Shown piece by piece: positions 8,390-44,607 of a stretch of 64,000 nt of DNA. The DNA comes from an uncultured Elusimicrobia bacterium (lineage in GTDB: Bacteria; Elusimicrobiota; Elusimicrobia; 2-01-FULL-59-12): positions 1,386,506-1,450,505 of the forward strand of contig OY969767.1 of assembly GCA_963702895.1 (NCBI GenBank), given 5' to 3'. The translations under genes were made by a program, and so were the position numbers. Positions within the stretch are counted from its first letter, which is position 1; every line of letters begins with the position of its first letter. The notes below the pieces were generated by a model. The model had not been told where the DNA came from. It saw only the letters and a list, made by a program, of their open reading frames with translations, and did no database searches.

Positions 8390-8464
8390 TGGTGGGCGCT
8401 ACAGGATTCGAACCTGTGACCCCTGTCGTGTGAGGACAGTGCTCTACCGCTGAGCTAAGCACCC
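8390..8464 (-). tRNA. tRNA-Val (anticodon CAC), CCA encoded
   Basis: The reverse complement folds as a canonical cloverleaf: acceptor GGGTGCT/AGCGCCC, D-arm GCTCAGCGGTAGAGC, anticodon stem CTGTC/GACAG with loop CTCACAC, T-arm ACAGGTTCGAATCCTGT, 3' ACCA. Confidence 0.85.
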
Positions 8465-11459: not shown

Positions 11460-12481
11460 CCCCGGACCTCAGCATTCGGAGCCCGACCAAGCAGATGAAA
11501 AGCGTCGGACGTCGAACGTCGGACGGACGTTCCAAGGTCCTCCGTCTGAACAGCCATCACGGAATCCACATTGGCCAGGTCAAAATGCCGCAAAAGGCCG
11601 GTTTCGCCTTCCTTGGCGAGTCCACCCGTCACCGAATCCACAACGATGGTTCGCGTCCAAGGAGGTCCTTGGAGAGAGGAAGTCCCCCCTCGTCCATAGA
11701 ATTGAGAACTGAGCTCACACATTCCATATTCATTAATGCATGCTTCTTCTGGGATGCCCAGGGATACTGTCACTTGCTGCACAAATTCTGGCCTGGTCAC
11801 CTGGCGTTTCTCTGTTTTCATTCCCCCCGTATCCATCAACCGGCTGCCAGGAGGAAGACGAAATATCTTTCCCGTCTTGCTTAGATAATCAAAGAATTTC
11901 AGGAAGCTAATCGTTGTGCCCAAGAGAGCCACCGGCACTCCGGTACTTTCCGACTCGCAAAGTTTCCGGAAGAGTTGTGTCTCGAGGAGAACACCTCGTT
12001 CGATGAAGGTGCCGCTACCGGGTGTGCCAAATTTGCGCTTGACGACCTCCAGCATCCAACTCAAGGAAGAGTGCGGGGCCTCCGCTGGAGCCGGCGCTAA
12101 CACCAGCATGGGCAGGCGCGCCTGGTCCGGCAAGACTTGAGATGAGAAAAAGCTCTCAAGCGAGCTCTCGTAGTAGCGAAGTGTCCGAAGATAGTGTTGG
12201 CTCCGGGACGATGAGGTCGTGCCGCTCGAACGAAACACCGCCGCCGCTTGGGCCACAGGAAAGGTGGCCAGCTCAGAGGACTTAAAGGCGGACACGGGAA
12301 CCGCGGGAATTTCCTGCCAGGTCTGGATCCGCACCGGACTCAGACCCTGCGCGCGGCAAAAGGCCTGATAGGGTTTGTTGCGCGCAAACTGATAGGCAAA
12401 AAGTTCAAGGGCGACAGACTCAAAATCACCCGTGCCCGTGCGCAAGAATTGCTCGATACGCTGTCCAAGGCTTTCGGTCAT
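11426..12481 (-). CDS. luxE: Acyl-protein synthetase, LuxE family
   Basis: 351-aa ORF resembling LuxE (adenylate-forming long-chain-fatty-acid ligase). ATGA overlap with the aminotransferase stop at 12478-12481. Confidence 0.7.
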   Translation of the reverse strand: MTESLGQRIEQFLRTGTGDFESVALELFAYQFARNKPYQAFCRAQGLSPVRIQTWQEIPAVPVSAFKSSELATFPVAQAAAVFRSSGTTSSSRSQHYLRTLRYYESSLESFFSSQVLPDQARLPMLVLAPAPAEAPHSSLSWMLEVVKRKFGTPGSGTFIERGVLLETQLFRKLCESESTGVPVALLGTTISFLKFFDYLSKTGKIFRLPPGSRLMDTGGMKTEKRQVTRPEFVQQVTVSLGIPEEACINEYGMCELSSQFYGRGGTSSLQGPPWTRTIVVDSVTGGLAKEGETGLLRHFDLANVDSVMAVQTEDLGTSVRRSTSDAFHLLGRAPNAEVRGCSLSAEAYRT

Positions 12482-15405: not shown

Positions 15406-15522
15406 TGTGTCCTGGGCCGTCGATACCCATATTTTATGGGTCTTTTAGGCCCGTATTTTTGGCCTTCCCTACTATATATTCATTGCCGGAAACCCCCTAT
15501 TATTAAGGAGACTAGATCTTCG

Positions 15523-25500: not shown

Positions 25501-28500
25501 CCGTGAGCGCGGCCGCGCACATGGCGCTGGAGCACCTTCAATCTTCGATTCTTGGGTTTGGTCTGCTCAACGGACCGATCGACATGGCCGGGTTAGATTG
25601 GTTCGCCGAAGCGATGGTCTCTCAGGCGGGCGGGCCGGCGATCGCGCTGGGCTTTCTCGCTTGTGCTTTGTTTCAGAGGCTATGGGCGCCGGCTGATCGC
25701 GGGTACGGCTCGGGCGACACCAGCCCTACCACTACACCAGCCGAGAATGCCACTTCGCCTGCCCCGACCTTCCGGTCGGCCGGGGAATTGTTCGGAAGCA
25801 CTGTTCTCGACAGGCACCCGGGTGCCGCGTTGGGTGATCCGGCGCCGGAAGCAACCCCCTCGCCAGGATACACCCGGCCTTTGGACCAAGCCACGTTGGA
25901 TCGGGTGGCCGCTCTTTTGGAACGCCGGGGACTTGGTTTTCTGCGACGCGTTGTGGGCATCACCAGGGTCCAAGTGACGGAAAAGCACGCTGCTCTTTAT
26001 CTGATTAGGTCCACCATCCAACACCTTCTATTCACGAAGTCGATTTTCCAGGAAATTATCGTTCCGGATTTCGAGACCAACAAGATGCTCACGAGGATCC
26101 TCGCCCGCCTCCATGAACTGTTCGACCCTGTGACTCTGCTCAACAGCTTGTCGCAAACGGATGTCTATCAGGACTTGCCCGAACCGATCCGCCAGCGCTT
26201 GGCGGAGGCGCGCAAGCAGTTACCGCCTTCAAGAACGATGTCGGAGTCGAATCAAGACACGCTCCGGCTCATCGTCACAATCGGACTCTTGCACGAGCTC
26301 GGCAGGGTCATCTGGGATTGGATGCGACAGCTGGGGGATGATCCGCCAGGCATTGACGAGGAGGAACTGGCTGCCGACAAGCTGAACGAGTGGAGACGAC
26401 TGGCAGACGCGGCGGACCCGGACCTCTTGTGGGTCCGCGCCGCACTCAACGCGTACGGGCCGGGCCGACGCGAAGATGGCAGCAACACTTTTCCCGCCCA
26501 GCTCTTTGCCGAAAAGTTCGCCGTGTGGGCGTATCCGCCATTGTCCCGTTACTTTGGCGTGAAGCTTTCCGAAAAAGAGACCCAATTCTTTGACGAGCTT
26601 GCCATTTTCCTTCAAGCCACGACGGCGCAGCCCGGCCCCATTGTGCCGGCCGGCGTGTCAGACTTCTCGGTTGACATATTCATCGCCGGCGTGGTGCTGG
26701 ATTCCCCCGAGGGGGAGAAGGTCGCAGCGGCGAGCAAGGCGTATCATGCGGCCAAGGAGGTCGTGACGCGATTACAGAATCAACACCGTTCCAAAGGTCA
26801 CTCACCTATTCACGGGGACAGAGACCTCGAGGAAAGGACTCTTGTCGCCCGTACCCGGGACATGCAAACACGAGAGCGTGAACTGCGCGAGGCTTTGGCC
26901 GCTGCCGCCCATTCGGAGCAACCGCATTACTTCAATGGCGTGCTGAACGCGCTGGTGAGGTTGTTTGTCGCCGGCCAATTGCCCGCGGACGACCACACGT
27001 TCGAAGACTTTCTGCGGCAGAACCGGGAGGTCAAAGAGAGCCAGGATGCGTGGATCCAGGATCACCGGGACAGCGAAGAGGGCGTCTTCAGCCTTAAGAC
27101 ATTACGGTTCGTTGCGTGGAAAGCCGTTCATGCAGCTCTATTGACGAAACTGCATCGGGATAATGGAGAGGCCATGTGGCACGCCCTGCAAAGAGTCGAG
27201 CAAAGGCTTAAGGCGTTACCGAAAAAGGAACGAAGCGAGCTCATCAAAGACAAAGCATTCATTGAAGGTGTGAAGAGCTATGCCCGCAAGGCTGGCGCCG
27301 ATGTGCACGCAGAGTGGAACAGTACCTCTCAGGAAGGCATCGCCGGCGTGGTCATAGGACCCTCCCAGACCAACCGATCAGCTGTCGCGAGGAGCGACGC
27401 GGCCCCCGCCGCTGGCGATACGGCAGGCGATGAGAAGGTCAGCATCTCTCTGGATGGGGCCGCCACCCTAAGGACCCGCTCTAGCGCGCTCGCCATTCAA
27501 GATCTGTTGCACCCTGCCATTCCCATCCGTGTGATGAACGACGAAGCGGGACGGCTGGTCTCCGGTCGAACACAACTCTGGACGGTCTGGGACACTCCAT
27601 TGGATAAGTTTGAGACCGATCTCGACTTTCATATTTTGACGTATCTCAAGACTCTTTTGGAACGTTATCCGGGCCGCCGGATCACGGTCGTGGATTGGGG
27701 GTGCGGATCGGGGAAGGCGATCAGCGAACTTGCCCGCCTAGCCAAAGAGTTGAGCCCCAACCTCCGACTCATCGGTTATTCGGACCAGATTTACCGTGAT
27801 TGGAATGAGGCTCCGGAGAATGTCACTTTCATTCTGGACACAGCAGACCAGCTGCCTGGTTATTTCAATGATGGAGACATTGACCTCGTCGTCAGTCATC
27901 ACGGATTCTCCAAGCTCGGGGCGGACTATATTGGGCACCTGCGCCAGATGCACGGCCGAATGGCACCCCATGGAATCATTCGCCATCACAATGCGGGCTG
28001 GAGCATCAGAATCCATCAGGCACTTCCCGAGTACAGCATCCGATACTTTCCCTCGAAATGGCGGCGTCATGTGATTGAATTTGCCCCACTCCTGGTTCAT
28101 TTAGACCCCGCACTCGCGTTGGACCAAGAGGCCCGGAGAGGAGAAAAGCACGCTTCTCCTACCCCAAAGGCAAATGAGACTCAGACTCAGCCCGCGCCCT
28201 TTCTTCTGCAGGCGATTGAACACCATCAGCCAGACGACACGTTTCCCCTTATCCATCTTCGCTCCAGCAAGACGAAGGAACCTTTCCAAATACGACTTCG
28301 GCAATGGAATCCTTTGGATTTTAGTATTGAAGCTTCGGGCCGCCCCATCGGGGAGCTCAGGCTGAAACGGCTGTCCAATGCATTGGAGCTCAGCAGGATT
28401 CAACTGTATGAAAGATATGAACGCCGCGGTATTTCGGACGCCGTCATCCAGTGGCTTTCCGGTCAATTGGATGAGCGGCACCCCGCGCTCGAGCTCTCCA

Positions 28501-29921
28501 CCCGCAAAGCGAATGTGCGGTCCAGTCTCGTGCGCCATTTCAGCGACGTGCAAATACGAACCCACGCGGGATACGTGCCCTTATCAGATCTTACAGGCCG
28601 GCTCCAGTTCGGCTTCAAGCGCCTTCGACGCTTCCGCGCCATGCAGCCAAAACAGCCAATTGACGAACCATCGGTTGCCACGCCGACATCCGACATCAGC
28701 CTCAAGACCACCAGCATTTTTGTCGCAGGGATCCTGCAGGCCCCCCTGTGGGGGTATGGTCTGAGCCATATTCTTAGCGGGACTCCGGGTCTTTCCATGG
28801 GACACCTGCTCATTGGCGCAGGGTGGTCTTCGCTTCCCATCGCGACAGCTCTTTTTCTGACTGGCGGCTTTCTGGCGGCCGTGATTCCACTATCCCCTCC
28901 GAATCCTGCGGACAAGGTCCGCCTGTTGGGCTCTCAAGGGAAATGGCCGGGGGATGCGCTCCTTGAGGAGCTGGTCCGACTCGTGCAAAAAAAGCCGTCT
29001 ATGAAGCAGCAAGATATTCAGTGGAGGGGTTACCGGATCACCGAGATCCTTTGGCAAATTCTCGATCAGCACCTGGGTTTTGACGGCCACACCATTATCT
29101 ACCCGGCCGGCGGGGCTGATGGATTGCCATCACGCTTTGCGGACACGATTGTGCTCAATCGCGACAGACTGGAGAATCAAGCACGCGAGACTTTCAGTCT
29201 GCCCAAGCCTGGGACACACCGTCTCACCTATCTCACGCTGGACGCGGCCAGTCCTGCCAATTACAACCAAGTCCGCTCCGACATCAAAACCCCGCAAACA
29301 ACGTTACTGCTCAAGGGTCTCGAATGGATGCTCCCAACATCGAAGTTCTTTGTTCGGCGTTTGCGCGCGATTTGTAATGTCTTGCAACCGAATCGGGTGA
29401 TCATCCTGCGCCGTGAGGATGCCGCTGCCGTGGTGCCTGTTCTTGCCGGCCTGGGCTATCGAGAGCGGACGGATTGGATTGATCGGACGCGCAAGAGAGT
29501 TCTTGAAGCGATCTTTAACTATATGTCCATATCGGTGCTGGATGAGGTTCAAACGCCATCCGGCCCCACGTTCATGATCCCCAATACAATCAGACTGTTT
29601 GAAAGGAATAAGGGTCAACAGACCATGGCCGATCGAACGCCGCGGCATCGGGCCAATCGAAAGACAATCGCGCTTTTGGCCGCGGCGACACTCGACGGCG
29701 GGCTCTTGGCCTGGGGCTGGGGCCACGTTCTTGACGGAGCGCAAATGCCGCTCGTCACCCAGGCCGCGTTCCTGGCGATGCCTACGTTCTCGTTGAGCAC
29801 CGCCGCAGCGCTCTTCCTGGCCGGCGGCGCGCTTGTGTCGATCATAACGAAACAGACTCGTATATCGAGAGAATTTAACCGCCCATCTCGCACACCCAGC
29901 CCGTTTCGCCAAGCCGCTTAA
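22519..29921 (+). CDS. Giant mosaic protein 2 (~2465 aa if the frameshift is corrected): leader + class-I SAM methyltransferase + hairpin modules; +1 frameshift at poly-C 22608-22615
   Basis: The leader MHRTIRRSAAVLLIVCLVVDPATAAAFS is in frame 1 (ORF 22477-22677). The body is in frame 0 (22641-29921). Inserting one C in the C8 run restores a continuous ORF (…AAAFSSSPPPLAAAVGQKVPSHSAFETQ…). MTase motif ITVVDWGCGSGKAI (≈27680-28000). Confidence 0.7.
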
Positions 29922-30009: not shown

Positions 30010-30237
30010 TTGGAGGTGTCTATGTTTGATCGAATCACGTTTGACGCAAACATTATGGGCGGACGAGCCTGCATTCGCGGAATGCGGATTCCTGTTTCGG
30101 TGATCGTCGGGCAGGTGGCGCATGGAGCGACAGCCCGAGAAATCCTGAAAGGCTATCCTGACCTCAAAGAAGAAGACATCAAGCAGGCCATGGAATATGC
30201 CGCCTGGCTGACTCAGGAAGAAGTGCACACGGCCTGA
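30010..30237 (+). CDS. DUF433 antitoxin-like protein (second copy)
   Basis: 75-aa ORF, …GGRACIRGMRIPVSVIVGQVAHGATAREILKGYPDLKEEDIKQAMEYAAW…. Paralogous to 9305-9535. Confidence 0.7.
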   Translation: MEVSMFDRITFDANIMGGRACIRGMRIPVSVIVGQVAHGATAREILKGYPDLKEEDIKQAMEYAAWLTQEEVHTA

Positions 30238-30246
30238 GGACGAACC

Positions 30247-30606
30247 ATGCGGTTTCTGGCTGATATGTGCGTCTCCCTGGAAGTCGTCGAGTGGCTCCGA
30301 CAGCAACAGCATGACACCAAGCATCTCCGAGAGGAAAACCTTCACAGGCTGCCGAATGGAGACATCTTCAAGAAGGCGGCCGCAGAAAATAGGATCCTCC
30401 TCACCTTTGATTTGGACTTCGGAGAAATCGTAGCGCTGGCGAAAGGAAACCAAACGGGCGTTATTTTGTTCAGGCTCTACGACACGCGGCCCGTGCATGT
30501 GATCGAACGCCTAAAGGTCCTCCTAGCTGATGCTCCTCCCGCCCTCAACAACAGCATCATTACTGTTGAAGAAACCCGCTACCGAATCCGCCATTTCCCC
30601 ACTTGA
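30247..30606 (+). CDS. DUF5615 (PIN-like) toxin (second copy)
   Basis: 119-aa ORF starting 10 nt after the DUF433 gene. Paralogous to 8980-9318. Confidence 0.7.
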   Translation: MRFLADMCVSLEVVEWLRQQQHDTKHLREENLHRLPNGDIFKKAAAENRILLTFDLDFGEIVALAKGNQTGVILFRLYDTRPVHVIERLKVLLADAPPALNNSIITVEETRYRIRHFPT

Positions 30607-30676: not shown

Positions 30677-30702
30677 TGAAGAATAGTCATGACTATTCTT
30701 CA
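30677..30702. promoter_or_regulatory. Operator-like perfect palindrome TGAAGAATAGTCA|TGACTATTCTTCA with additional ACTATTC half-sites upstream (30651-30676)
   Basis: Seen in sequence ~150 bp upstream of the giant gene 3 start, in a locally low-GC stretch. Confidence 0.4.
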
Positions 30703-30850: not shown

Positions 30851-33800
30851 ATGCCCAAATCGCTGATCCGCATCGTCGCGCTGATACTCGTCCCGTGCAT
30901 GCTCCTGGATCCGAGCTCCGCGTTCGCGGAGCTCGCCCGCCCCGCTGCGTGGCGGGCGCCATTCCCTGCAGGCGTTTCCCTTGCATCCCCACAGGCGACT
31001 CATGCCGCATTACGACTGGACTCTTTTCCGTTCGGTATCCAAGCCCTGGTTCCACCCAGCTGGCTGAGCCGTCCGATATCCTGGATCCAAAGAGCGAGTG
31101 AGCTGGCCCGCCAAGCAAGCAGGAATCGGTTCCAGGTGCGATGGACGTCTCTAGCAGGATCTCCATTCAGTTTCCCTGTTCTGGGTACGGACGAGCGACC
31201 CATTCGCCCGGTTCAATTCAGCGTATCCCAGAATGAGATCGGCGGCGGGCAGGACGGTACGGGCCAGATCGTAACGACACCAAGCGGCTCTCGCTTCCAG
31301 GTGTTCGACACCCCGCAAACCATGGCCGCCGCCCAGGCCGGTGAAATCGCGGAAATCATCCATGCCAATGATGCCGCCGGCCGGATCACCATCCTGATCC
31401 TGCCAACGGGCTCGACGCCAATCCCTGTCTACCACGAACTGGTCCGCCTGTACCAGGCGCGGCAGCTTTCCTTCCGAAACGTTCATACGTTTAACATGGA
31501 TGAATACTACCCCGGACCGCAGGCTCCCTGCGCTTGGGCTCAGCACCCACAAAGCTACCGCCGATTTATGGATGAGCTCTTATTCTCAAAAGTGGACATC
31601 CCTCGGGCAAATATTCATTTTCTTAACGGCCAGGCCGCCGACCCGGCAGCAGAGGCCGCTCGCTATGAACAGGAGTTTCGGGATCTCGCTCCAAACGGCG
31701 CCGACCTGGAGTTGGGTGGTGTGGGAAGCCGGGGGCATGTGGCCTTCAACGAAGCGGTGGTTCACCTAACGGATGACTTTCTCCAGCGCCTCACGAGCAA
31801 GAATCGGGAAGCGCTAGGTCTGTCCAATGATTTCGCCTTAGAAGTAACGGCCGGCCACGAACTTGCTGCTTTGGCGATGATTCTACAAGGTCACTGGAAT
31901 TTCCGGGAAGGCGAGACTTTCGTCCGCTGGCTTCGAGCAAGGATCAAGACGACGGGTCGCATCACGGAGGAAAGCCTCCAGAAATTGGCGGAAAGGCTTC
32001 GCCGCCAGCGCGTCACCATTGGCTGGAATCCCGATTCCCCTGATGCCAAGGACATCCAGGATTTCGTCAATCAAGCCAGTGCAAGATTCGGCTTTCCGAT
32101 TGAACTGGCCGACCTCAGAAAACTTGATGATTCCCAGACACACCTACGGGAACTGGCTTTATCCACCGTGGTCGACAATTCCGTTCACTTCGCTGAGCCC
32201 GCCGACATTCCCACCCAGGCTCTCACGATGGGCCTGGGAACGCTGAGGCATTCGCAGCGGACCCGCATTCTCGCTTCGACACCCAACAAAATCCCGCCGC
32301 TGGAACAGGTTGCCGCCGGCCCTGTGTCTGAGCAAGTCCCTGTCACCGATGTCCTGCGCCATCCCGACACCCGGTTCCTGGTGACCCAGGCGGCCATCCC
32401 GCCCACGGTGCGCACTGCCCTTGCAAGAACATCGGGTTTGGTATTGAACTCCCAACCCGAAACTCGAAACCCGAAAGCCGAATCCGGGACCCCTGCAGCG
32501 CGCGACACCAAGCTTTACACTCATCCCATCGCTGTTATGGCTCTCGCCTGGATGGCAAGTTCCCACTTTTATAGCTGGGACCCGGCCGGGACAGGCCTCC
32601 TTCTACTTCTGACAATCGCACCTTTAATGGCTTGGCAAGGAAGGATCTTCCGCGGCAAATCCGGCATGAATACGTTCCGGAGACTCGATGCATTGCTGAG
32701 GCATTTGAGGGGTCTTAGTTATGCTCGCTGTCGTGAACTCTTAGCAACCGGTCTCGACCGGTTCGTGCCGCCGCGCCGGAAACATAGACAGCGGGAGTTC
32801 CCGGCAATCGCCCTCCCCGCCGCCGCGCCAGGAAATCCGTTCCAATTGCGCCCCCCCACCGCCGTAGAGCTGGCGTTCCCCAGTCGGTATGAGAGCGCCG
32901 TTCACGCTAAGTTTGTGGGGAACGACCCCTACGATGATCGAACCAGAGCCATAGTCCAGGCCCACGCCACCGCGGCGTATGTGGACTTGATGAGAGAAAT
33001 TTTCAAACGGACAGGCGGGACCTTGCGCGGAGTTTCGTTTCTTGAACTGGGCGCCGGGCTCGGTGCCATAGTGGACGTTCTGCGAACAAGAGCGGGTGTC
33101 GATGCTCAAGGCATCGAGGTCCGCCGGGAGTTTGTTCAATTCGCTAGGGATCATGGGGTGCCGCTTATTCAAGGGACACTGCTGGAAGTGCCCCTTGAAC
33201 TGGCGGGAAAAACGTTCCAGATCACCTTTTCCAGGCAACTGCTGGATGCTATAGAGACGACTGATCGGGCCACCGAGGGCCCCATGCCCTCCCAAGTGAC
33301 CCATGAAGAAGAACTCCGCGTCTTGGCCACGATCGCGGCGCTGACCGCCCCCGGAGGATGGAGCATCCATCAAACATATAGCTCCAACCCTATTCCCTTT
33401 ACTGATGAAGAACTGACGCAGGCCGGGTTTCAGATTGTGTCGATGAACCCAAGGCGAACGATGATGGTGCTTCGCCGGTTGTCCGATCCGCCGCCTTCGA
33501 GCCCGGTACGGAGGCCTGAGGCCGCAGAAGAAACAATTAAACCTGAAGGAAAGAAGGGCCCCAGCCTTTACACTCATCCCATCGCTCTTATGGCTCTCGC
33601 CTGGATGGCAAGTTCCCACTTTTATGGCTGGGACCCGGCCGGGATTTTGCCGCTGCTCCTCTTGCTTGTGCCGCTGATGGCCTGGGGTCCGGGTCGTTAT
33701 CGGCAATGGATGACCTCCCTTTCCGGGAGAGGGCCAAGATACAAGGCGAAGCAATGGGAACGGAAATTGGATGAAGATCTGAGGCGCCTGAGAGGAAAGG

Positions 33801-36800
33801 GAAGTAAAGCCGGAACCTTGCCATTTGAACTTTATCCCGGTGCCGATGCAGGGGCTCGGAAGCCTGCATCCCCTCGCCCGGCCCGGCCGGCCACCCAGCT
33901 GCCCGAAGCGGTCCCGGTCTCTGACCCCTCGGTGTCGCTCGACCTCGCCCCGGCTGCCGCGGTTTCCCTGGCACCGGCTGCCGCGACCGCCGTCTCGCCG
34001 CCTAGCCCTATCGCCGATTCGCCGCCTCCATCCACCGATGGCTCGCCGACCCGCCGGCCCGCCGACCCGCCGACTCGCCGCGTCGCCGCATTGGACGTCG
34101 ACCCCGCCGCGCCGGCGACAAGCCCGTTCCGGCCGTGGCGGTGGATCGCCGCCGGCATCGCAGTCGCCGCGGTCGTTGCCGCCCTGCATTTCGGCCCGAC
34201 AACGTTCAGACAATTCCGGGACGGGTCTTCAACGCCGCGCCCGTCGTCGTCCGCGAGTCAGGACTACGTCTATGAGCCCGGGCCGGCGTCCGAAACCACA
34301 CACGACCGCGTCCGTACCATGATGGGACCGTACTACGGCATGGATCTTCAGGGACATCGGGCGGAATCCGGAGAACCCCGGGCCGATGCGGGAGCTCCCT
34401 CGCAGCCCCCCGCGCTGAACCCATTGGAGAACATTGCAGACATACAGCTGAGCGGTCATGCCGCGAATGAAATGCTGATGATGGCATTCGCGAACACGAT
34501 GGAAGACGGCGGCGTTTTATCCCACGCGGGACGAATTGACTTCGTGCCCTCGGATAAACTCACGAAAGAACGCACCAAAGTCACGCTGATTTTGCCCGCA
34601 TTGCGCCAGGGCCAGGCGATGCGCATGCCCATTCCCCTCAACCGCCGGGTCGATCCCCTGAGCATCTCGGACCCACGCCTCTGGGTTGACGCCCAGGGCT
34701 GGCTCACGGCCCGGGAGGATACCCCCCCGCTCACCGTGACCTTTGATTGGATCACGACCTTGGAAAACGGCTCCTTCCGGGCGAACTTCCCCGTGACACC
34801 CTGGATGGAGCGGGAATTCCAAGATATTCCGCCGGAGGTTCGAAGGGACCTTGACCGCGCTCTAGGGCTCGATGAACATGGACGCGCGAGCGTCCTGGCC
34901 GGCGTGGTTGAGAAATACCTCGGCTACAACCAGCAACAGAGAGTTCAACTTCGTCGGGGGACGTGGAATCGTTTCATTGGAGAAGTTCTTGAGACGGAAG
35001 GGCGGTTTAAGGGCGATTGCGACGTCTTGGCCACCGTCGGTTGGATCTGGGCCAGGTATCTTGGACTTGATGCTGTCATGGCAGCCGGCCGGAACAACAG
35101 GGGCGGGGGCTCACGGTCCGGAACGAACATGTCCCACGCCGTCATGGTCATCCGGATCGGCGGCAAGTGGCTCGAATTCGACCCTTCCAAATGGGCGCCG
35201 CCCGTCGCCAGTGAAAGTCTTGCGCCTGACCAGCCCTCCGCCGACGGGAAACGGCTGGATGCCGGTCCCATGCCGACACCGCTCAAGCCCTCACCCCAGT
35301 TTGTCGCTACCTTTATCCCGAACCCCGAGCTTTTCCCGCCACCTCGAACGGGACCACCCGCCAGTGCAAAGCCTACCGCGGAGCGACCCGTTCCGCCCGG
35401 CGTGGGTCAGGAATCACCGAAGACCGAACCCGGCGCCAAAGTGGGGCCTGCCGAGAAGCCCGCGAGCGCCAAGAAACCCGCGAGCACCGAAACCCCCGCC
35501 AAGCGGCCCAGCACCTACCGCGTTCAGCCCGGCCAGAGTTTCAACGATATCGCGCGCTTGATATTCACGGATGAGAAATATCCCTACCCGGCGGCCTTGG
35601 ATCTGATCGTGGACAACATCAACCACACGATCGGCGGCGACCCCGACCGCCTGATGGCAGGAGTCGACCTCATCGTACGGCCTACGAGCGCGTATTCTAG
35701 TCCTGTAGCAGGGATGGATTGGGAATGGGGCCTCCATCGAAAATATGGACGGGCCTGGTATGAGCGGCGCCATGCCTTGCTGCAGCAGGCGCTGACCCGG
35801 GAAAGTCAACGCCCGTCACCCTATACTTCGGAATACCAATCGGAACTGCGGGCGCGCGCGGGCGCCCGGTGGCGCTCGATCGAATTCGACATCCTTGCCA
35901 TCAACGACATCCTGAATTGGATCGAACAACGCTTCGGGGTCAGATTCCAACGAGTTGACCTTATGCAGGCGATGGCTCAAACCATGGAGCGCAGTCAAAT
36001 CATCTTGAAGCTGACGTCAACCGGCCGTTCAAAATCCGGAACGACCGCCGCCCCGAAGCAGACGGCCGACGGGGAATCGGCGAAACGGAGAAGCGGTGAA
36101 CCGGCGGACTTGCCTCTGGGCCATTCCACGAAAACAAGTCCGGACGACCGACTCATCGCTCCGAAGAGCATCACTCCCCTCATGGCAGGCCTGCTCCAGG
36201 CTCCGCTGTGGTGGTGGGGGCTGAGCCACCTGCTGGGCGGGCCGCAGACACCGCTCCTGACCCAGGCCGCCTTCCTGGCCCTTCCGGCCATCCCGCTCGG
36301 CGCCGCCCTGGCCCTGTTCGCGGCGGGGGTCGTGGTGGCGGGGATGGCGGTTTTGGGGAGAAAGGTTCTGAAGCAAACCAGACCCGAGCGCATTGAAATA
36401 CAACTGACCCCAATGGACAGACCCTATCAATTGGATCTCGTCAAGTCAGGTGGCAGCCATTCCCGGGGAGATTTGATTCGTCTCGATTTGGAGGAAATGC
36501 GGCTCGAAGCGCACAAGACCGGCGTACCCGGCCGTATGGCTGTTCGTCGAGTCTACCTCGAAGAGCTTGGACACGCTGTTGACGCGCGCCGCTTCGTCAG
36601 AGAAGGGCGGCCTCTTAGCGGCTTTGTAAGACCCAACTCACCTTTACAGACGTATTGGGACCACCACAATCCCAAAGACCCTGAGCATGACATGAAGGAG
36701 CTAGTGGCGGGTCTCAGGCACATCCTGTTTGCGCAAACCCCCTTTGAGGCGGAAAGAGCCCTCATAAAATTATCGCAGGTAGCCAATGATCCGACCGACA

Positions 36801-39800
36801 GCCACTATTGGGGCGGACGCTTCGCCCTTGAGAGGATTCTCCAACGCATCGACGCAGGGCGAGGCGAGAGGGTGGATGATCTGACAAACTATTTGCCACG
36901 CCTCATCTATGGGTCAGGGGCGTTCCCGGACCTGCCTACGCTGCGTTTACTGGCGAAAGAATTATGTATCGAAAACCTGCGGGACTATCCGCCTGACGGA
37001 GACGGTCTCCCTGCGCTGAGCGCGGATGGGTCCCGGATCGACGTTCCGGATGAGACCCAACAAGCTTTGGCAACGGTGTGGCGCGCATTCGAGACTTACA
37101 CGGGAAAATCATTGGCCGATGACGCGGTCCCCACGCCGGAACATGTCCGACATTCACAAGCGGCGAGGAGCGGGCTGCCTGGGTTTGACCGAACGGGCCA
37201 TTCTATTCATGACCCTGGTCTTGCGCAAGGGAGAAAGATGGTTGGTATGGTCATCGCCGGCCTGCTCCAGGCTCCGCTGTGGTGGTGGGGGCTGAGCCAC
37301 CTGCTGGGCGGGCCGCAGACACCGCTCCTGACCCAGGCCGCGTTCCTGACGATGCCGGCCATCCCGCTCGGCGACGCCCTGATCAGCTTCGCCGTGGGCG
37401 CGGCGTGGATCGTGGTGGCGGGGATGGCGGTTTTCGGGTCAGGGGCGCCCGCTCCGGGGCAGGAAGGGGTTTCCGGTCCTGTCTCGCCGGGACCGTCTTC
37501 CAATACCGCGGCCGCCGTCCGGAGGTCCTTCGAAGCGCAGGCTCGAGTACTGGCCGGTATCCCCACCGTGACCGAATTTGAAGCTAATTTCCCAGGCACG
37601 ATACGTCGCGTCGATCTTGGACCAGGCTATTCGAATTCGTTACGAGCCGGAGAAGTTCCTAAGATCGATTTCACGCGTCGAATACAGGGAAGAGTCTACC
37701 AGCCACCACCGGCGTCGGAAAACGATTGGCCGAAATGGCTGGACCTGTACGTCGAAAAAGACGCCCAGGCGCTTGTCGTGAGGCTGATGAGAGCGGGCTT
37801 TCGCCCCGATTATTCCAACGCTTACGGAGATGGCCTGAAAGGAGTGTGGTGGACCCGAACCAGCCACCATACTGACACCGTCGGTTCCAACGCAACAAAT
37901 ACGTTCTTTACTCCATTGACAGAGGAGGATTATCTCGCGCCGGACCAAGGCGAACATCCGGGCGAGACTCCTAACGACCCAGGAGCGCCTGTTACACCAA
38001 CAGAACCTCCCTTGAATTGGATCGAAAAGAATGACGCAGCCCTCGAGCAACTGAGTCCCATCGACCGTCAGCTTGTCGATGCCATTCTCCAAGGCGCCTT
38101 ACACGGCGATGCTGAACTGCTTGCCCAGTACCCAGAAAAAGTTTATATCGATCCTATTGAAGTTGGACGCTCGGATGAAGGCCGAACAATCTTTCTCAAG
38201 CTTGAAACGAGCATCCTAGTAGAAGGCCGCTACCTCACACACCTGCGATTCAAAGGCGCTCGCCCCCATAAAGGGCGCTACGGGCAGGGGAACCAAGTCG
38301 CCTATCTCGGACGTCGGGGCCATGTCGAGCGGCCTGTAACGGTCGATCAGGAAGGGCGATTGACGGTTTTTGCCGGTCAACTTGACCCCATGGGAGGTAT
38401 GCGCCGTATCGGGGCTGCCAACGAATACGCTTTGATGCAAAGCGAAAACAGCCAAGGCGCCTATCGCACGGACGTGCCGATCGGCTGGGGCATCTTCCCT
38501 GGATTTGCATTTGAAAACGAACCTCTGGGCTGGGCGATCGCAGGGATGGAAGGGCCCGACGTTCGAATAAACGGGCGTCGTCAGAATCAGCTGATCCTCC
38601 GGTCGCGCACGAACGACCCTTATGGGATGATTGAACTGTCTCAGGAACAGTCGCAACACCTCGCCAGGCTCATCGGTGAGAGCATCTGCGCTTATCATCA
38701 AAAAGGCCGTTATCACCGCTACCCCCATTTTGGAAATATCGGCGTGGCCTACGATACTGTCACCCGTTCCATCCGTTCTGTTGTTCTGCGGGATTTGGAG
38801 ACCTCCGTCCGGAAAGACAGCCTGAGCGGATCTCCGAAAGAAATTGAGAACCAAATCATTGCTTGGCGTTTCCGGGATGTGATTCGGTTGATCTATCAGT
38901 TCTCCTTCAGACCACGGCCCAATGACCCGCTCATCGGCGCCCTCTTGCGCGGATACTTCCCGGAAGGGACTCTAAGAAATGATGATCTTCAGGCCCTGCT
39001 TGTGACCATTTGCCGTCCCAACTTTCTCGATGATTACGCATCCTTATTCTACGACGATGAGACGCAAGATCTCTCGAATTTGATCGACACTCTCGACATC
39101 CAATCTCATCCTAATTATCAGCATCTTTGGAACGCGATCAGACAATCCATGGCGAGCCAGCCCGCCACTCCTGAAGGGAATGACGGTTCGGCGACTCAAG
39201 AACATCCGGGTCGCATTGATCCGACGGGCTTGCGCCGCGTGCTCCCGGCAATCGCCCTCCTGGCCGCTCTTCCCTGGACCTACGGCTTCACTTCGATCAG
39301 CGGCTCTCCCGGATCCGGCGCCGCGATCCCGCTCGGCGCCGCCCTGGCCCTGTTCGCGGCGGGGATCGCGGTCCTGATCTCAGGGAATTCCCCTCGAAAA
39401 CGCAAAATACTAACTAAGGCGGCGAGCCATAAGGCAGGAAGGCAAAAGCCGGTGAGTGGCGATGCACCGGGTCCTTCGCGTCACGTTTACCCTGACCCCG
39501 TCGTCATGGAGAAAAGTCGTTACGATCTTCCAAAGAGTTTGAAGTCCTGGTCTTGGCTCGCTCGCAACAAGGACCAACGTCAATGGCTGCGGGACGTATT
39601 CCTGCCGAGACTCTTGGCGACTCAAAACCTCCGCGCTCCAGGACAAATCAAGGTCGTAGACCTTGGCGTAAGCACCGGAGAAGTCCTCGCCCGAACTTAC
39701 TATGAGATTTTCCAGCATCTCATAGAAAACACCTTGAAGGGAACATGGAAGGCCAGGATGGTAGGTGTTGATAGGGATGCGACCGTGCTGGCGGAAGCCC

Positions 39801-41371
39801 GTCTTCGGATAAGCGGCAAGCACCCTTTCAATGATATCTCGATCTCTGGCCCTACCATTGAAAAACCAACCCCCTACTCGGCGGCCGTGGTGGATTTCTT
39901 AAACAGCGACCCGGCGGCCTTTCAATCCAGCGTGCAGCTGGAGCAGCTCGACATCACCGACCATGATTCGCTGGACCCCGTTTTAGACGGTGTCGACCTG
40001 ATCATGGTCAACCACGTCATGGAATATTTGCACCCGGCGGACGTAAAGCCCTTCTTGCAACACCTGTACCAGAAGGCCCCGCAAGCCTGGTTGGCCATGG
40101 AAAATGAATACAGTACTCCCGCCGAAGCTCACCACCGCCAATGGATACCTTATCAGCCGACGCATTTGCCGGGCTTTCGCCCAACGGATTCAGGAAGCAG
40201 CTCACTTCCCGGCGAGAACACACCCCGGTCAGCGGCTGTGGTCGGCATCTTCGCCAGCTGGCTCGCGCTCAGTCAGGCCGCATCCTCCGCTCACCTCCCC
40301 AGTAGGTTGGAATCCCTGCTTTCATTCTTCTATTCGATATCGCCGCTCTTTCCCTGGCTCATGCTCGCCGCGACAGCGGTCTGGCTGGCGGGCACCTTTG
40401 TCGCGCTGAGAACTCTTTGGAGGCACCCCTCTCGGGTGCCGAGCATAAGACAGGGCGGTACGGCTTCGCCCAGCCCGGCCAGAGCGCTCACTTTTCGGTA
40501 CTATTCCGAACTGACCCCCGGACAAAAAGCTGATGTAACGCTAGCTTCATTAATCAGAAGGTTAGGAGCAAGACGTGAGGTGCACGTCTACGATACGAAA
40601 CCATTGGGCAGCCGGTGGGGCCAATTGCCGATCCTCACCCGGTGGAGCCTGCGCCGTTTCACGCGTAACCTGACCCCTGATCCGACAACACTCAGACTCG
40701 ATGCTCTCGTCGCCTATCGTGGAGACATTCCCATGGGTGTTTACGCGTTCATCGATCTCGGTCCAGATCGTCAAATTGTTATGGACAACGGCATCTACAT
40801 GGACGCCGACCAGAGGCAGAACGGATACGGTGGAAAACTCACGAAGGAACTCCTCAGCAGGCTGGCAGAGCGCGGGTACAGAATGTTCGTTTTGGGACCG
40901 CCTTTGGGAACGGCTGAAGCGGAGGGGCTCCGTCGGTGGCTGAGCGCTGCCCCAGGCGTTGAAACGCGGGGCAGAACAACCATCGTCCATCTCGCTAACT
41001 ACCGAACAAACACCGCCAATTCCCAAGCCGCCGGCAAACCCAAAGGCAAAACAAACGATTCCGCCCCGGAAGCGGAGCCCGCTGACGCGCCGCGCGGCAT
41101 AAAGCTTCGCAGTTCCGCGCTGGCCGGCGCTCTCGCCAGCGCGATCGCGCTCAGCCAGGCGCCGTTTGCCCCCCAACTGCCGGATTGGCTTTCTCCCCTC
41201 TTCAGCACGGCGAGTTCGCTGGCGCCGCTCGTTCCCTGGGTGGGGATGGCCGCCGTGATCGGTTGGCTTTTACGGCCAGCTCTGACTCGCATGCTGTTGA
41301 AGGCCCTTCCCCGCCTGCGCGGCAGTCGTTCATCCCGAGCCATCCATCATCACCTTCGAGCCGCGGCCTGA
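30851..41371 (+). CDS. Giant mosaic protein 3 (3506 aa): leader, NagB/6-phosphogluconolactonase-like domain, 2x SAM-MTase, transglutaminase-like, LysM-like, GNAT-like, many hairpin modules
   Basis: Uninterrupted ORF. Leader MPKSLIRIVALILVPCMLLDPSSAFA. NagB-like PTGSTP…NMDEYY…GHVAFNE (≈31384-31760). MTase LELGAGLGAI (≈33038-33400). TGase-like GDCDVL…SHAVMVI…EFDPS (≈35012-35190). LysM-like YRVQPGQSFNDIARLIF (≈35516-35570). MTase VVDLGVSTGE (≈39640-40090). GNAT-like …QRQNGYGGKLTKELL… (≈40690-40900). Confidence 0.8.
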   Translation: MPKSLIRIVALILVPCMLLDPSSAFAELARPAAWRAPFPAGVSLASPQATHAALRLDSFPFGIQALVPPSWLSRPISWIQRASELARQASRNRFQVRWTSLAGSPFSFPVLGTDERPIRPVQFSVSQNEIGGGQDGTGQIVTTPSGSRFQVFDTPQTMAAAQAGEIAEIIHANDAAGRITILILPTGSTPIPVYHELVRLYQARQLSFRNVHTFNMDEYYPGPQAPCAWAQHPQSYRRFMDELLFSKVDIPRANIHFLNGQAADPAAEAARYEQEFRDLAPNGADLELGGVGSRGHVAFNEAVVHLTDDFLQRLTSKNREALGLSNDFALEVTAGHELAALAMILQGHWNFREGETFVRWLRARIKTTGRITEESLQKLAERLRRQRVTIGWNPDSPDAKDIQDFVNQASARFGFPIELADLRKLDDSQTHLRELALSTVVDNSVHFAEPADIPTQALTMGLGTLRHSQRTRILASTPNKIPPLEQVAAGPVSEQVPVTDVLRHPDTRFLVTQAAIPPTVRTALARTSGLVLNSQPETRNPKAESGTPAARDTKLYTHPIAVMALAWMASSHFYSWDPAGTGLLLLLTIAPLMAWQGRIFRGKSGMNTFRRLDALLRHLRGLSYARCRELLATGLDRFVPPRRKHRQREFPAIALPAAAPGNPFQLRPPTAVELAFPSRYESAVHAKFVGNDPYDDRTRAIVQAHATAAYVDLMREIFKRTGGTLRGVSFLELGAGLGAIVDVLRTRAGVDAQGIEVRREFVQFARDHGVPLIQGTLLEVPLELAGKTFQITFSRQLLDAIETTDRATEGPMPSQVTHEEELRVLATIAALTAPGGWSIHQTYSSNPIPFTDEELTQAGFQIVSMNPRRTMMVLRRLSDPPPSSPVRRPEAAEETIKPEGKKGPSLYTHPIALMALAWMASSHFYGWDPAGILPLLLLLVPLMAWGPGRYRQWMTSLSGRGPRYKAKQWERKLDEDLRRLRGKGSKAGTLPFELYPGADAGARKPASPRPARPATQLPEAVPVSDPSVSLDLAPAAAVSLAPAAATAVSPPSPIADSPPPSTDGSPTRRPADPPTRRVAALDVDPAAPATSPFRPWRWIAAGIAVAAVVAALHFGPTTFRQFRDGSSTPRPSSSASQDYVYEPGPASETTHDRVRTMMGPYYGMDLQGHRAESGEPRADAGAPSQPPALNPLENIADIQLSGHAANEMLMMAFANTMEDGGVLSHAGRIDFVPSDKLTKERTKVTLILPALRQGQAMRMPIPLNRRVDPLSISDPRLWVDAQGWLTAREDTPPLTVTFDWITTLENGSFRANFPVTPWMEREFQDIPPEVRRDLDRALGLDEHGRASVLAGVVEKYLGYNQQQRVQLRRGTWNRFIGEVLETEGRFKGDCDVLATVGWIWARYLGLDAVMAAGRNNRGGGSRSGTNMSHAVMVIRIGGKWLEFDPSKWAPPVASESLAPDQPSADGKRLDAGPMPTPLKPSPQFVATFIPNPELFPPPRTGPPASAKPTAERPVPPGVGQESPKTEPGAKVGPAEKPASAKKPASTETPAKRPSTYRVQPGQSFNDIARLIFTDEKYPYPAALDLIVDNINHTIGGDPDRLMAGVDLIVRPTSAYSSPVAGMDWEWGLHRKYGRAWYERRHALLQQALTRESQRPSPYTSEYQSELRARAGARWRSIEFDILAINDILNWIEQRFGVRFQRVDLMQAMAQTMERSQIILKLTSTGRSKSGTTAAPKQTADGESAKRRSGEPADLPLGHSTKTSPDDRLIAPKSITPLMAGLLQAPLWWWGLSHLLGGPQTPLLTQAAFLALPAIPLGAALALFAAGVVVAGMAVLGRKVLKQTRPERIEIQLTPMDRPYQLDLVKSGGSHSRGDLIRLDLEEMRLEAHKTGVPGRMAVRRVYLEELGHAVDARRFVREGRPLSGFVRPNSPLQTYWDHHNPKDPEHDMKELVAGLRHILFAQTPFEAERALIKLSQVANDPTDSHYWGGRFALERILQRIDAGRGERVDDLTNYLPRLIYGSGAFPDLPTLRLLAKELCIENLRDYPPDGDGLPALSADGSRIDVPDETQQALATVWRAFETYTGKSLADDAVPTPEHVRHSQAARSGLPGFDRTGHSIHDPGLAQGRKMVGMVIAGLLQAPLWWWGLSHLLGGPQTPLLTQAAFLTMPAIPLGDALISFAVGAAWIVVAGMAVFGSGAPAPGQEGVSGPVSPGPSSNTAAAVRRSFEAQARVLAGIPTVTEFEANFPGTIRRVDLGPGYSNSLRAGEVPKIDFTRRIQGRVYQPPPASENDWPKWLDLYVEKDAQALVVRLMRAGFRPDYSNAYGDGLKGVWWTRTSHHTDTVGSNATNTFFTPLTEEDYLAPDQGEHPGETPNDPGAPVTPTEPPLNWIEKNDAALEQLSPIDRQLVDAILQGALHGDAELLAQYPEKVYIDPIEVGRSDEGRTIFLKLETSILVEGRYLTHLRFKGARPHKGRYGQGNQVAYLGRRGHVERPVTVDQEGRLTVFAGQLDPMGGMRRIGAANEYALMQSENSQGAYRTDVPIGWGIFPGFAFENEPLGWAIAGMEGPDVRINGRRQNQLILRSRTNDPYGMIELSQEQSQHLARLIGESICAYHQKGRYHRYPHFGNIGVAYDTVTRSIRSVVLRDLETSVRKDSLSGSPKEIENQIIAWRFRDVIRLIYQFSFRPRPNDPLIGALLRGYFPEGTLRNDDLQALLVTICRPNFLDDYASLFYDDETQDLSNLIDTLDIQSHPNYQHLWNAIRQSMASQPATPEGNDGSATQEHPGRIDPTGLRRVLPAIALLAALPWTYGFTSISGSPGSGAAIPLGAALALFAAGIAVLISGNSPRKRKILTKAASHKAGRQKPVSGDAPGPSRHVYPDPVVMEKSRYDLPKSLKSWSWLARNKDQRQWLRDVFLPRLLATQNLRAPGQIKVVDLGVSTGEVLARTYYEIFQHLIENTLKGTWKARMVGVDRDATVLAEARLRISGKHPFNDISISGPTIEKPTPYSAAVVDFLNSDPAAFQSSVQLEQLDITDHDSLDPVLDGVDLIMVNHVMEYLHPADVKPFLQHLYQKAPQAWLAMENEYSTPAEAHHRQWIPYQPTHLPGFRPTDSGSSSLPGENTPRSAAVVGIFASWLALSQAASSAHLPSRLESLLSFFYSISPLFPWLMLAATAVWLAGTFVALRTLWRHPSRVPSIRQGGTASPSPARALTFRYYSELTPGQKADVTLASLIRRLGARREVHVYDTKPLGSRWGQLPILTRWSLRRFTRNLTPDPTTLRLDALVAYRGDIPMGVYAFIDLGPDRQIVMDNGIYMDADQRQNGYGGKLTKELLSRLAERGYRMFVLGPPLGTAEAEGLRRWLSAAPGVETRGRTTIVHLANYRTNTANSQAAGKPKGKTNDSAPEAEPADAPRGIKLRSSALAGALASAIALSQAPFAPQLPDWLSPLFSTASSLAPLVPWVGMAAVIGWLLRPALTRMLLKALPRLRGSRSSRAIHHHLRAAA

Positions 41372-41400
41372 CCCGAGAGATTAGCCGGGAAACTGCAGTT

Positions 41401-41537
41401 GCCGTCACCCCGGCGGATTGTTAGCCGGCCCTCCACACATCCGGCGGGCCGTCCGCCCTGCCGTGTGGCGGACGGGGTCTATCACCGTCGTAAACGGAAT
41501 GATGGATCCCCCCCTTACGACCGGGGGGGATGACGGT
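41401..41537. mobile_element. MITE-like element family B copy 2 (intergenic)
   Basis: GCCGTCACCCCGGCGG…GCCGGCCCTCCACACATCCGGCGGGCCGTCCGCCCTGCCGTGTGGCGGACGGGGTCTATCACC…GGGGGGGATGACGG. >90% identical to copy 1 over the core. Confidence 0.75.
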
Positions 41538-41606
41538 ACAAAAAAGTCCCGACGTCTCAGTCAATAAAGAACGTTCAACAGAACTTTTCCGGTTAGGTAA
41601 GCTCCT

Positions 41607-42856: not shown

Positions 42857-44599
<1,743 letters not shown>

Positions 44600-44607
<8 letters not shown>

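Follow-up and report, generated by a model that had tools for sequence, protein, structure and literature searches.

Probable patch-wise gene conversion between membrane-hairpin linkers in the giant modular genes of an Elusimicrobia bacterium

Membrane proteins that unite many enzymes in one very long chain have only recently been discovered in uncultivated bacteria, and how they are built, processed and evolve is poorly understood. Long multi-enzyme, membrane-anchored proteins have been described in the Omnitrophota (West-Roberts et al. 2023, bioRxiv 10.1101/2023.11.21.568195; 2026 bioRxiv 10.64898/2026.06.07.730766). One of these giants has approximately one transmembrane (TM) helix per 370 residues, the TM content is about 2% of residues throughout, and protein repeats outlast nucleotide similarity that has dissolved (10.1101/2023.11.21.568195; 10.64898/2026.06.07.730766). 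The catalogue of these proteins starts at ≥10,000 aa (10.64898/2026.06.07.730766). Neither of the two papers (10.1101/2023.11.21.568195; 10.64898/2026.06.07.730766) mentions gene conversion, hairpins or recombination.

The stretch of DNA analysed here (64,000 nt, called the window) carries three giant genes next to one another, G1, G2 and G3. The encoded proteins resemble those of the Omnitrophota in that many unrelated enzyme and regulatory Pfam domains (methyltransferase, GNAT, receiver, sugar-metabolism) share one polypeptide and that TM helices are interspersed over the full length, seen here as hydropathy peaks every ~250–650 residues. They differ in size, as the giants here (2343, 2426 and 3506 aa) fall under the 10-kaa catalogue, and in that the TM spacer repeats here, as families of two-helix hairpins, and not the catalytic domains. 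The modules recognised by Pfam across G1–G3 are NagB-like, three to four SAM methyltransferases, transglutaminase-like, GNAT, receiver and ICMT, plus unknowns. G3 has Glucosamine_iso at aa 154–298 and Methyltransf_23/25 at aa 715–846, with weak matches to Transglut_core, Methyltransf_12/CheR and GNAT; G2 has Methyltransf_11 at aa 1684–1780. The sequence of G3 is identical to protein-library entry P0001. An N-terminal signal-peptide-like segment is present in G1 and G3.

Near-identical domains that evolve in concert by gene conversion are found in modular polyketide synthases, for example the mycolactone PKS. The locus is like them in that paralogous segments of a very long modular gene or cluster share short stretches of near-identical DNA with older divergence elsewhere, and in that in-frame repeats permit the loss or gain of modules. 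The homogenised units of the PKS are catalytic domains of one pathway, whereas those of this locus are hydrophobic, non-catalytic linkers that separate modules unrelated to one another. Flaviviridae-type polyproteins contain internal transmembrane hairpins and signal sequences. Here the likeness is a functional analogy only, namely that soluble units alternate with paired membrane-spanning helices; the present genes lie on a bacterial chromosome.

Table 1. Giant genes and predicted hydrophobic hairpins of the locus (positions in the window unless given as aa).
Feature	Position	Strand	Description
G1 giant gene	15436-22467	+	ORF, 2343 aa; multi-pass ICMT-like membrane domain and receiver domain
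G1 hairpin h2	19078-19221	+	D-type; tract 19081-19124 matches h3
G1 hairpin h3	20581-20733	+	D-type; tract 20590-20633 matches h2
G1 hairpin h4	22210-22401	+	D-type
G2 giant gene	22641-29921	+	ORF, 2426 aa from first GTG; database version begins at aa 201
G2 hairpin h1	24609-24758	+	D-type
G2 hairpin h2	25479-25676	+	D-type
G2 hairpin h3	28713-28901	+	B-type
G2 hairpin h4	29667-29858	+	B-family; 29713-29782 has 78-80% DNA identity to G3 B1 and B2
G3 giant gene	30851-41371	+	ORF, 3506 aa; soluble modules and hairpins A1, A2, B1, B2, B3, C1, C2
G3 hairpin A1	32513-32641	+	aa 555-597; tract 32513-32591; helix 2 matches A2 only as protein
G3 hairpin A2	33566-33700	+	aa 906-950; tract 33566-33644
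G3 lone TM segment	aa 1094-1119		Hydropathy
G3 hairpin B1	36173-36373	+	aa 1775-1841; B2/B3 mosaic
G3 hairpin B2	37238-37456	+	aa 2130-2202; tract 37251-37438 matches B1
G3 hairpin B3	39239-39394	+	aa 2797-2848; tract 39323-39372 matches B1
G3 hairpin C1	40229-40420	+	aa 3127-3190; C2 paralog without conversion tract
G3 hairpin C2	41114-41287	+	aa 3422-3479; final element before C-terminus

An initial annotation of this DNA had listed three pairs of near-identical repeats in G3. All three were recovered by self-blastn of positions 15001–42000, which sets G3 against itself and against G1 and G2, and by a scan for exact matches over all 64 kb. The exact direct repeats within G3 measure 83, 39, 38 and 25 nt; by chance, the longest exact direct repeat is 15–19 nt (20 first-order Markov simulations of 64 kb). 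The repeats are real and far above chance. The tract shared by A1 and A2 is 79 nt long with 77/79 positions identical (97.5%, E 2e-32) and includes an exact 38-mer (32535–32572 = 33588–33625). The ends first given for this pair, 32640 and 33690, lie too far downstream; beyond 32591/33644 the similarity is at the protein level only, and the DNA is dissimilar. In B1, positions 36180–36358 align with the B2 tract over 188 nt at 87.8% identity (E 6.5e-64), with a 9-nt indel between the copies. This alignment contains an exact 83-mer (36188–36270 = 37259–37341), which is the sequence quoted in the initial annotation, and a further exact 25-mer (36330–36354 = 37410–37434). The third pair, 36287–36336 in B1 and the B3 tract, is identical at 47/50 positions (94%) and includes an exact 39-mer (36290–36328 = 39326–39364); the second-copy positions first given for it are a few nucleotides off. 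The offsets between copies (1053, 1071 and 3036 nt) are each a multiple of 3. No long-period tandem array was found in G3 by TRF.

Weaker pairs that are absent from the initial annotation were also found. The h4 segment at the C-terminus of G2 matches 37288–37356 (80% over 70 nt) and 36217–36279 (78% over 64 nt) in G3, and an exact 18-mer is common to h4 and B2 (29757–29774 = 37331–37348). The h2 and h3 tracts of G1 are 86% identical over 44 nt and share an exact 24-mer (19097–19120 = 20606–20629).

All repeats map to hydropathy peaks with a helix–loop–helix layout. Using hydropathy and no dedicated TM predictor, we identified 14 predicted two-helix hydrophobic hairpins at the spacing given above in G1–G3. 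They form four sequence families, A–D, some of which are common to more than one giant gene. Tile-wise phmmer within and between G1–G3 showed that the repeated part consists of the hairpin, approximately 45–70 residues, plus at most 75 flanking residues. The modules between hairpins, 250–650 residues each, had no mutual similarity in the same comparison, and their Pfam content differs. The modules that follow A1 and A2, and those that follow B1, B2 and B3, showed no similarity by phmmer tiles and blastp. The repeats had been described as module duplications arising by recent intragenic duplication, a description that is not supported, since only the hairpin linkers and their short flanks repeat.

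The density of Lys and Arg is 0.167 ahead of helix 1, 0.018 in the loops and 0.205 past helix 2. Under the positive-inside rule of von Heijne, each spacer would cross the membrane twice, with K/R-rich flanks and a loop almost without K/R. Because the flanks are Lys/Arg-rich and the loop is nearly Lys/Arg-free, we infer that every soluble module faces the cytoplasm and is anchored to the membrane at each of its ends. This topology is based on hydropathy, the positive-inside rule and an AF2 model of B1 of low confidence (pLDDT 66), which has helices at residues 2–26, 28–37 and 43–70, that is, two long helices around one short one. The signal-peptide-like N-termini of G1 and G3 would speak against this and place the modules in the periplasm instead. 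A histidine directly follows helix 1 in 11 of the 14 hairpins and is mostly preceded by a small-x-small triplet. This triplet resembles the −3/−1 site of signal peptidase; in one hairpin the +1 residue is a proline, which would prevent cleavage by signal peptidase I.

For each hairpin pair, codons encoding the same amino acid were scored as identical or different inside and outside the tract (Fisher), and the longest identical run was evaluated by permutation. For A1–A2, 20/20 such codons are identical inside the tract and 8/41 outside (p = 5e-10). The corresponding counts are 42/46 and 8/16 for B1–B2 (p = 1e-3) and 14/15 and 3/12 for B1–B3 (p = 7e-4). The longest identical runs of these pairs (38, 83 and 42 nt, respectively) all have permutation p ≤ 5e-5. 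The h2–h3 tract of G1 gave p = 0.003 (Fisher) and p = 1e-4 (identical-run permutation), and the comparison of G2 h4 with the B hairpins of G3 gave p = 0.002 (permutation). In other hairpin pairs, 36–50% of same-amino-acid codons are identical. The pair C1–C2 served as an internal control; no identical run in it exceeds 10 nt (p = 0.13), and it has no tract. In the codon-level alignment, the tract edges are sharp, and helix 2 of family A is conserved as protein through different codons. B1 is a mosaic that is B2-like at 36188–36270, B3-like at 36290–36328 and B2-like again at 36330–36354, and at least two events are therefore required.

Synonymous identity inside the tracts, diverged codons outside them and the B1 mosaic are, taken together, the mark of recent gene conversion over short patches. 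The initial annotation had named gene conversion as an alternative, and this part of it is well supported by the sharp tract edges, the diverged synonymous sites around the tracts and the mosaic. Judged by sequence, the copies in the four hairpin families are paralogs of ancient origin. The repeats are probably the coding sequences of these paralogous two-helix hydrophobic hairpins (predicted TM), converted recently in patches, where conversion is read from the pattern of identity. In at least four pairs, an exact stretch of 24–83 nt would recently have been overwritten by a paralog through non-reciprocal homologous recombination, and one of these stretches extends to a mosaic of ~180 nt. The two copies of a pair lie 1–3 kb apart in the same gene. 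With respect to GC-biased conversion, the B and C hairpins have a high GC3 (0.76–0.85) and the A tract does not.

Recent copying of a hairpin-coding cassette and its insertion at new inter-module sites, at a target without a prior paralog, would produce the sharp 5′ tract edges and the unrelated modules between copies. However, protein homology with randomised codons runs past the tracts, in family A over helix 2 and ~75 residues downstream and in B1/B2 over ~50 residues upstream, and older paralogs were therefore already present. Such insertion would also require two partners for the B1 mosaic, and the copies have neither terminal inverted repeats nor target duplications in common; we regard it as unlikely. 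A MITE-like in-frame mobile element was rejected, as the tract ends have no common inverted repeat. Strong purifying selection on the peptide together with codon bias, without any exchange of sequence, would be in line with the high GC3 of the B and C hairpins and with hairpins being conserved motifs. Yet outside the tracts the same amino acids are encoded by only 15–50% identical codons, C1–C2 has a similar composition and no tract, and the two differences in the A tract (2/79) are both non-synonymous, with none synonymous. Selection of this kind is a very improbable cause of the tracts.

It is just as improbable that the identity is an artefact of assembly or polishing, in which the reads of one copy corrected another or repeats were mis-joined. 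The sequence does come from the assembly of an uncultivated organism, and a frameshift at a G homopolymer, probably a consensus error, interrupts rpoD in the window; per-base quality is therefore imperfect. However, the source contig of 2,724,539 bp implies reads or scaffolding far exceeding repeats of ≤190 nt, each copy is uniquely flanked and preserves an open reading frame of 10.5 kb, and the copies still differ, by 2/79 in family A and by mosaic patches and the 9-nt indel in family B. Collapse during assembly, raised as a risk for G3, thus looks unlikely. G3 had no exact match on record in assemblies; Logan run ERR11561443 contains the DnaK of this organism. The explanation to which we give the least credence is that the tracts are functional elements at the nucleotide level (structured RNA, or a regulatory or recoding signal) under selection. 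In 15000–42000 all Rfam families stay below their gathering scores, the folding energies of the tracts are no better than those of shuffles (z −0.99 to +1.35), and the tract boundaries vary between pairs. ORFs in antisense or in other frames match no Pfam family, and a reading of the tracts as antisense genes was rejected on the same ground.

A profile HMM search of 1.84 billion representative proteins found no relatives of the B hairpin except G3 and G2 themselves; P0002 and P0004 were discarded as unrelated tandem-repeat proteins in which many weak matches are summed. Metagenome scans with the hairpin alignment and with G3 aa 1120–3506 gave no match. Homologue searches with G3 aa 300–600, 1768–2206 and 1842–2130 were also empty, but they missed G3 itself, which the collection contains, and are uninformative. 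A genome scan matched mostly ordinary NagB/Pgl genes, with one useful match, which is the only distant multi-module relative found for the giants (29–33% identity). This is a giant ORF of 5636 aa in an Omnitrophota MAG (JBDRCT010000021.1, locus L001), with homologous NagB-like (29% over 427 aa), methyltransferase (33%) and receiver modules. Its module boundaries are at places comparable, relative to the domains, to those of the giants here. In contrast, these boundaries bear a five-residue R-S-E-[VMAIT]-R motif and no hydrophobic hairpins, the module order is unlike that of the giants here, and internal DNA repeats are absent. The motif brackets every recognisable domain, and one copy is immediately upstream of a canonical Tat signal (SSRRYFLGL...VLAQS). 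No short recurrent peptide delimiter of the RSExR type was found in G1–G3.

A bolder and rather doubtful reading is that the giant ORFs are bacterial polyproteins, in which the repeated hairpins serve as uniform signals for membrane insertion and processing. Helix 1 would then be an internal signal-anchor that ends in small-x-small-His on the outer face. Cleavage at this motif, conserved in 11/14 hairpins and in all four families, would free individually anchored enzymes, and gene conversion would keep the hairpin signals uniform. In the distant Omnitrophota relative, R-S-E-x-R would be a delimiter of another kind, on the cytoplasmic side. If true, the polyprotein reading would supply the cleavage points that are called missing in the giant-gene literature.

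The locus is a tidy, not an extraordinary, case of gene-converted hairpin spacers. Its repeated families are membrane spacers, not enzymes, and because the spacers appear to be still exchanging sequence, they would behave as a common, selectable 'connector'. The hairpins and the R-S-E-x-R motif of the Omnitrophota relative point to defined module boundaries, which are candidate processing sites. The repeats are too short to threaten long-read assembly; in short-read data, they could leave such genes fragmented or chimeric. As judged from the sequence, the in-frame repeats are a plausible substrate for module deletion or expansion. Because they are in frame, exact deletion of a module of 351, 357 or 1012 codons is possible, and conversion leaves perfect in-frame repeats through which whole modules could be deleted or duplicated exactly. 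Such repeats would offer giant genes a concrete route to the gain and loss of whole modules.

The genes G1, G2 and G3 are three consecutive giant open reading frames on the plus strand. Self-blastn of 15001-42000, a repeat search and an exact-match scan over the whole window recovered all three pairs of near-identical DNA stretches reported in G3 by the initial annotation. The first pair is real, but its reported range was too long; in a codon-level alignment, the DNA identity ends at 32591/33644. Within the B1-B2 pair lies an exact 83-mer (36188-36270 = 37259-37341), which is the sequence quoted in that annotation. In first-order Markov simulations of the window, the longest exact repeats were merely 15-19 nt. 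Self-blastn also showed weaker DNA similarity between the G2 C-terminus and G3 (29713-29782 vs 37288-37356, 80%), and two G1 sites are similar in DNA (19081-19124 vs 20590-20633, 86%).

Location of the giant genes, their repeats and hairpins, the L001 giants and the rpoD parts
Feature	Location	Strand	Length or identity
G1	15436-22467	+	2343 aa
G2	22641-29921	+	2426 aa
G3	30851-41371	+	3506 aa
G3 repeat pair A1-A2	32513-32591 vs 33566-33644		77/79 identical
G3 repeat pair B1-B2	36180-36358 vs 37251-37438		87.8% over 188 nt
G3 repeat pair B1-B3	36287-36336 vs 39323-39372		47/50 identical, exact 39-mer inside
Family A hairpins	G3 aa 555-597, 906-950
Family B hairpins	G3 aa 1775-1841, 2130-2202, 2797-2848; G2 aa 2025-2087, 2343-2406
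Family C hairpins	G3 aa 3127-3190, 3422-3479
Family D hairpins	three in G1, two in G2
L001 giants	JBDRCT010000021.1, 114-4493 and 4820-21730
rpoD regions 1-2	43459-44607	-
rpoD regions 3-4	42857-43336	-

A Kyte-Doolittle scan placed each repeat on two hydrophobic segments with a short loop between them. There are 14 of these predicted hairpins over G1-G3, in four sequence families (A-D). Using tile-wise phmmer, we found that self and cross similarity among the giants is restricted to the hairpins, reaching at most approximately 50-75 residues into their flanks; the 250-650-residue stretches separating them share no relationship. Each inter-hairpin stretch has a different Pfam domain or none. 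The modules comprise a NagB/6-phosphogluconolactonase-like domain, several SAM methyltransferases, a receiver domain, an ICMT-like membrane domain, and weak transglutaminase-like and GNAT matches. Since the intervening stretches are unrelated and differ in Pfam content, the repeats are not the module duplications proposed initially but spacers separating modules.

Codon-level alignment of family A showed two differences in the 26 codons of helix 1 and the loop, both non-synonymous. In helix 2, the protein is homologous (LLLLLTIAPLMAW vs LPLLLLLVPLMAW), yet the codons are different throughout. We compared codons of identical residues only, with Met and Trp left out, inside and outside each tract, that is, each short stretch of near-identical DNA. 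For A1-A2, 20/20 codons are identical inside and 8/41 outside (Fisher p 5e-10); the corresponding values are 42/46 and 8/16 for B1-B2 (p 1e-3), 14/15 and 3/12 for B1-B3 (p 7e-4), and 8/9 and 4/17 for h2-h3, two family D hairpins of G1 (p 3e-3). Identical runs of 38, 83 and 42 nt were matched in 0/20,000 permutations of the mismatch positions, and the 24-nt run in ≤1/20,000. By the same permutation test, the equally paralogous control pair C1-C2 is free of tracts, its longest run being 10 nt (p = 0.13). Other hairpin pairs have 36-50% codon identity at conserved residues. B1 is a mosaic, matching B2 at 36188-36270, B3 at 36290-36328 and B2 again at 36330-36354, thus requiring at least two exchange events. 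Short-patch gene conversion classically leaves mosaic, short and sharply bounded identity over old paralogs. The gene conversion proposed initially is well supported by such tracts and by the codon test, and short-patch conversion between old hairpin paralogs is the best explanation and a probable one. The hairpin paralogs are old, and the short patches would have been overlaid later.

The ALTERNATIVES tested were a newly inserted hairpin cassette, a selected RNA or DNA element, peptide conservation with codon bias, and an assembly artefact. Such a cassette as the source of the repeats is contradicted by diverged homology that runs on past the tract ends, and no terminal inverted repeats are common to the copies. 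That the tracts are kept by selection as an RNA or DNA element is unsupported; there are zero Rfam matches in 15000-42000, tract folding energies are not better than those of shuffles, and Pfam matches none of the overlapping ORFs on the antisense strand or in alternative frames. A conserved peptide combined with codon bias, as the source of the tract identity, does not withstand the inside/outside comparison of codons.

The risk of misassembly, also raised initially, is rated low, and the tract identity is unlikely to be an artefact: G3 and G2 sit on one contig of 2,724,539 bp, the repeats are at most 190 nt long with unique flanks, the frames are open over 7-10.5 kb, and differences remain between the copies. 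Against this, the rpoD of the window is broken by a frameshift, hence the consensus does contain errors. This gene (42857-44607, -) is split into two ORFs within a G run (CAGGAGGGGGGCTC, around 43450), for which an error in the homopolymer consensus is the probable cause; this gives a hint on the sequencing technology and per-base quality.

The window is ordinary bacterial chromosome (PBP2-like, dnaG, rpoD, mtaB, dnaK, hrcA, lepA). A direct repeat of approximately 150 nt (12492-12640 and 41400-41555; exact 57-mer and 18-mer, two internal palindromes) encloses an approximately 29-kb block of aminotransferase, IS256 transposase, G1, G2 and G3. Its right copy begins 29 nt past the G3 stop. The repeat may represent a REP-like element or mark the boundary of an island. 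The IS256-family transposase gene (14103-15350, +) lies directly upstream of G1, with a gap of 86 nt. The 930-nt G2-G3 gap contains a DUF433/DUF5615 gene pair (30010-30606, +), which we take to be a putative toxin-antitoxin module. A perfect 26-nt palindrome (30677-30702) precedes the G3 start by 149 nt. Left of the giants, genes for a LuxC-like acyl-CoA reductase, a LuxE-like acyl-protein synthetase and a class-III aminotransferase stand in a row (10446-13953, -). A degenerate tandem array (8031-8243; periods 22, 44 and 65 nt) adjoins tRNA-Val (8390-8464), and exact repeats of 19-32 nt are dispersed (5668-5772/6166-6263) in a lower-GC part of the window (0.515-0.558). At 0.64-0.65, the GC3 of the giants (15436-41371) is below the 0.70-0.76 of dnaK, lepA, dnaG and the PBP gene; hairpins of types B and C reach 0.76-0.85 vs 0.57-0.70 in neighbouring modules. 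These differences could come from a weaker codon bias, from modules of foreign origin or from GC-biased conversion.

The AlphaFold2 model of B1, obtained from five B copies, has long helices (2-26 and 43-70) flanking a short helix, at low confidence (pLDDT 66). The Lys+Arg density falls from 0.167 in the 15 residues ahead of helix 1 to 0.018 in the loops, and is 0.205 beyond helix 2. Under the established positive-inside rule, hairpins with this pattern are predicted to be N-in/C-in, which would put every soluble module on the cytoplasmic face. Such a placement fits the SAM-dependent, receiver and sugar-phosphate chemistry of the modules. The N-terminal signal-peptide-like segment of G1 and G3 would argue against it. 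These leaders are alike in G1 (15520-15612, aa 29-59) and G3 (30851-30937, aa 1-29; FVALLLVPSLLVDPLTAAA vs IVALILVPCMLLDPSSAFA). The true start of G1 may be the internal Met at the leader; the ORF runs 28 codons further upstream.

An exhaustive search of 1.84 billion representative proteins with a B-hairpin profile matched only G3 and G2 themselves, each a singleton cluster at 90% identity, and metagenome scans found no relatives. A genome scan gave one informative locus, L001, on a Candidatus Omnitrophota MAG. Its 5636-aa ORF carries NagB-like, methyltransferase and receiver modules that are 29-33% identical to their counterparts in G3 and G1. Hairpins are absent from L001, whose hydrophobic segments are N-terminal and one internal only, and internal DNA repeats were not found in it. 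The motif R-S-E-[VMAIT]-R delimits its modules, with 20 occurrences in two adjacent giants (22 with two near-variants; chance expectation well under one), and closely flanks every recognisable domain (PGI, NagB-like, methyltransferase, receiver). The motif is encoded by varying codons, which puts the constraint on the peptide; it is a candidate for a module delimiter or a cleavage site. The G3-L001 alignments begin and stop beside these motifs, at places where G3 carries hairpins; this supports reading the G3 hairpins as putative inter-module connectors. The L001 giants end in ...ASA and ...KAA. Small-residue endings are common to G1-G3, all of which end soon after a terminal hairpin and basic tail (...RAA, ...QAA, ...AAA; 22453-22467, 29907-29921, 41357-41371).

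A histidine directly follows helix 1 in 11 of the 14 hairpins, in all four families, mostly after a small-x-small triplet (ASS, GLS, GWG, SSA, AQG, VLG or AAA before H). Such an arrangement would be in keeping with a signal-peptidase-type -3/-1 site on the outer face. G1 has an internal Tat-like signal (15862-15951, aa 143-172; MSRRDLLK...AAAQA at aa 143-170; M-SRRDLLKQSALALMVQNLPAAAQA), and so does the L001 giant ORF (aa ~1090-1120; SSRRYFLGLCLKSFAFASVAGLPSVVLAQS), directly after RSEMR/RSEAR. Such signals deep in giant ORFs suggest fused precursor genes or polyprotein processing. Processing of the giants as polyproteins would be compatible with the His sites and Tat-like signals, and we consider it improbable.

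The long proteins of Omnitrophota combine many unrelated enzyme and regulatory domains with interspersed TM helices; cleavage of their products was left open and the cleavage points are unknown (10.1101/2023.11.21.568195; 10.64898/2026.06.07.730766). According to the 2026 preprint, tandem repeats at the nucleotide level are mostly dissolved in such proteins; gene conversion, recombination and hairpins are not mentioned in it (10.64898/2026.06.07.730766). Compared with these proteins, the G1-G3 locus is a variant of the same kind, smaller and orphan, and the TM spacer is its repeated, still-exchanging unit. In alternating soluble units with TM hairpins, the giants resemble viral polyproteins by analogy only. 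Repeated domains of modular polyketide synthases undergo concerted evolution, which the process at G1-G3 resembles.

The two copies of every repeat pair share one reading frame, with offsets of 1053, 1071 and 3036 nt (351, 357 and 1012 codons). Recombination over the perfect repeats of 38-83 nt is therefore predicted, rather than observed, to delete or duplicate exact whole modules with one hairpin left intact.
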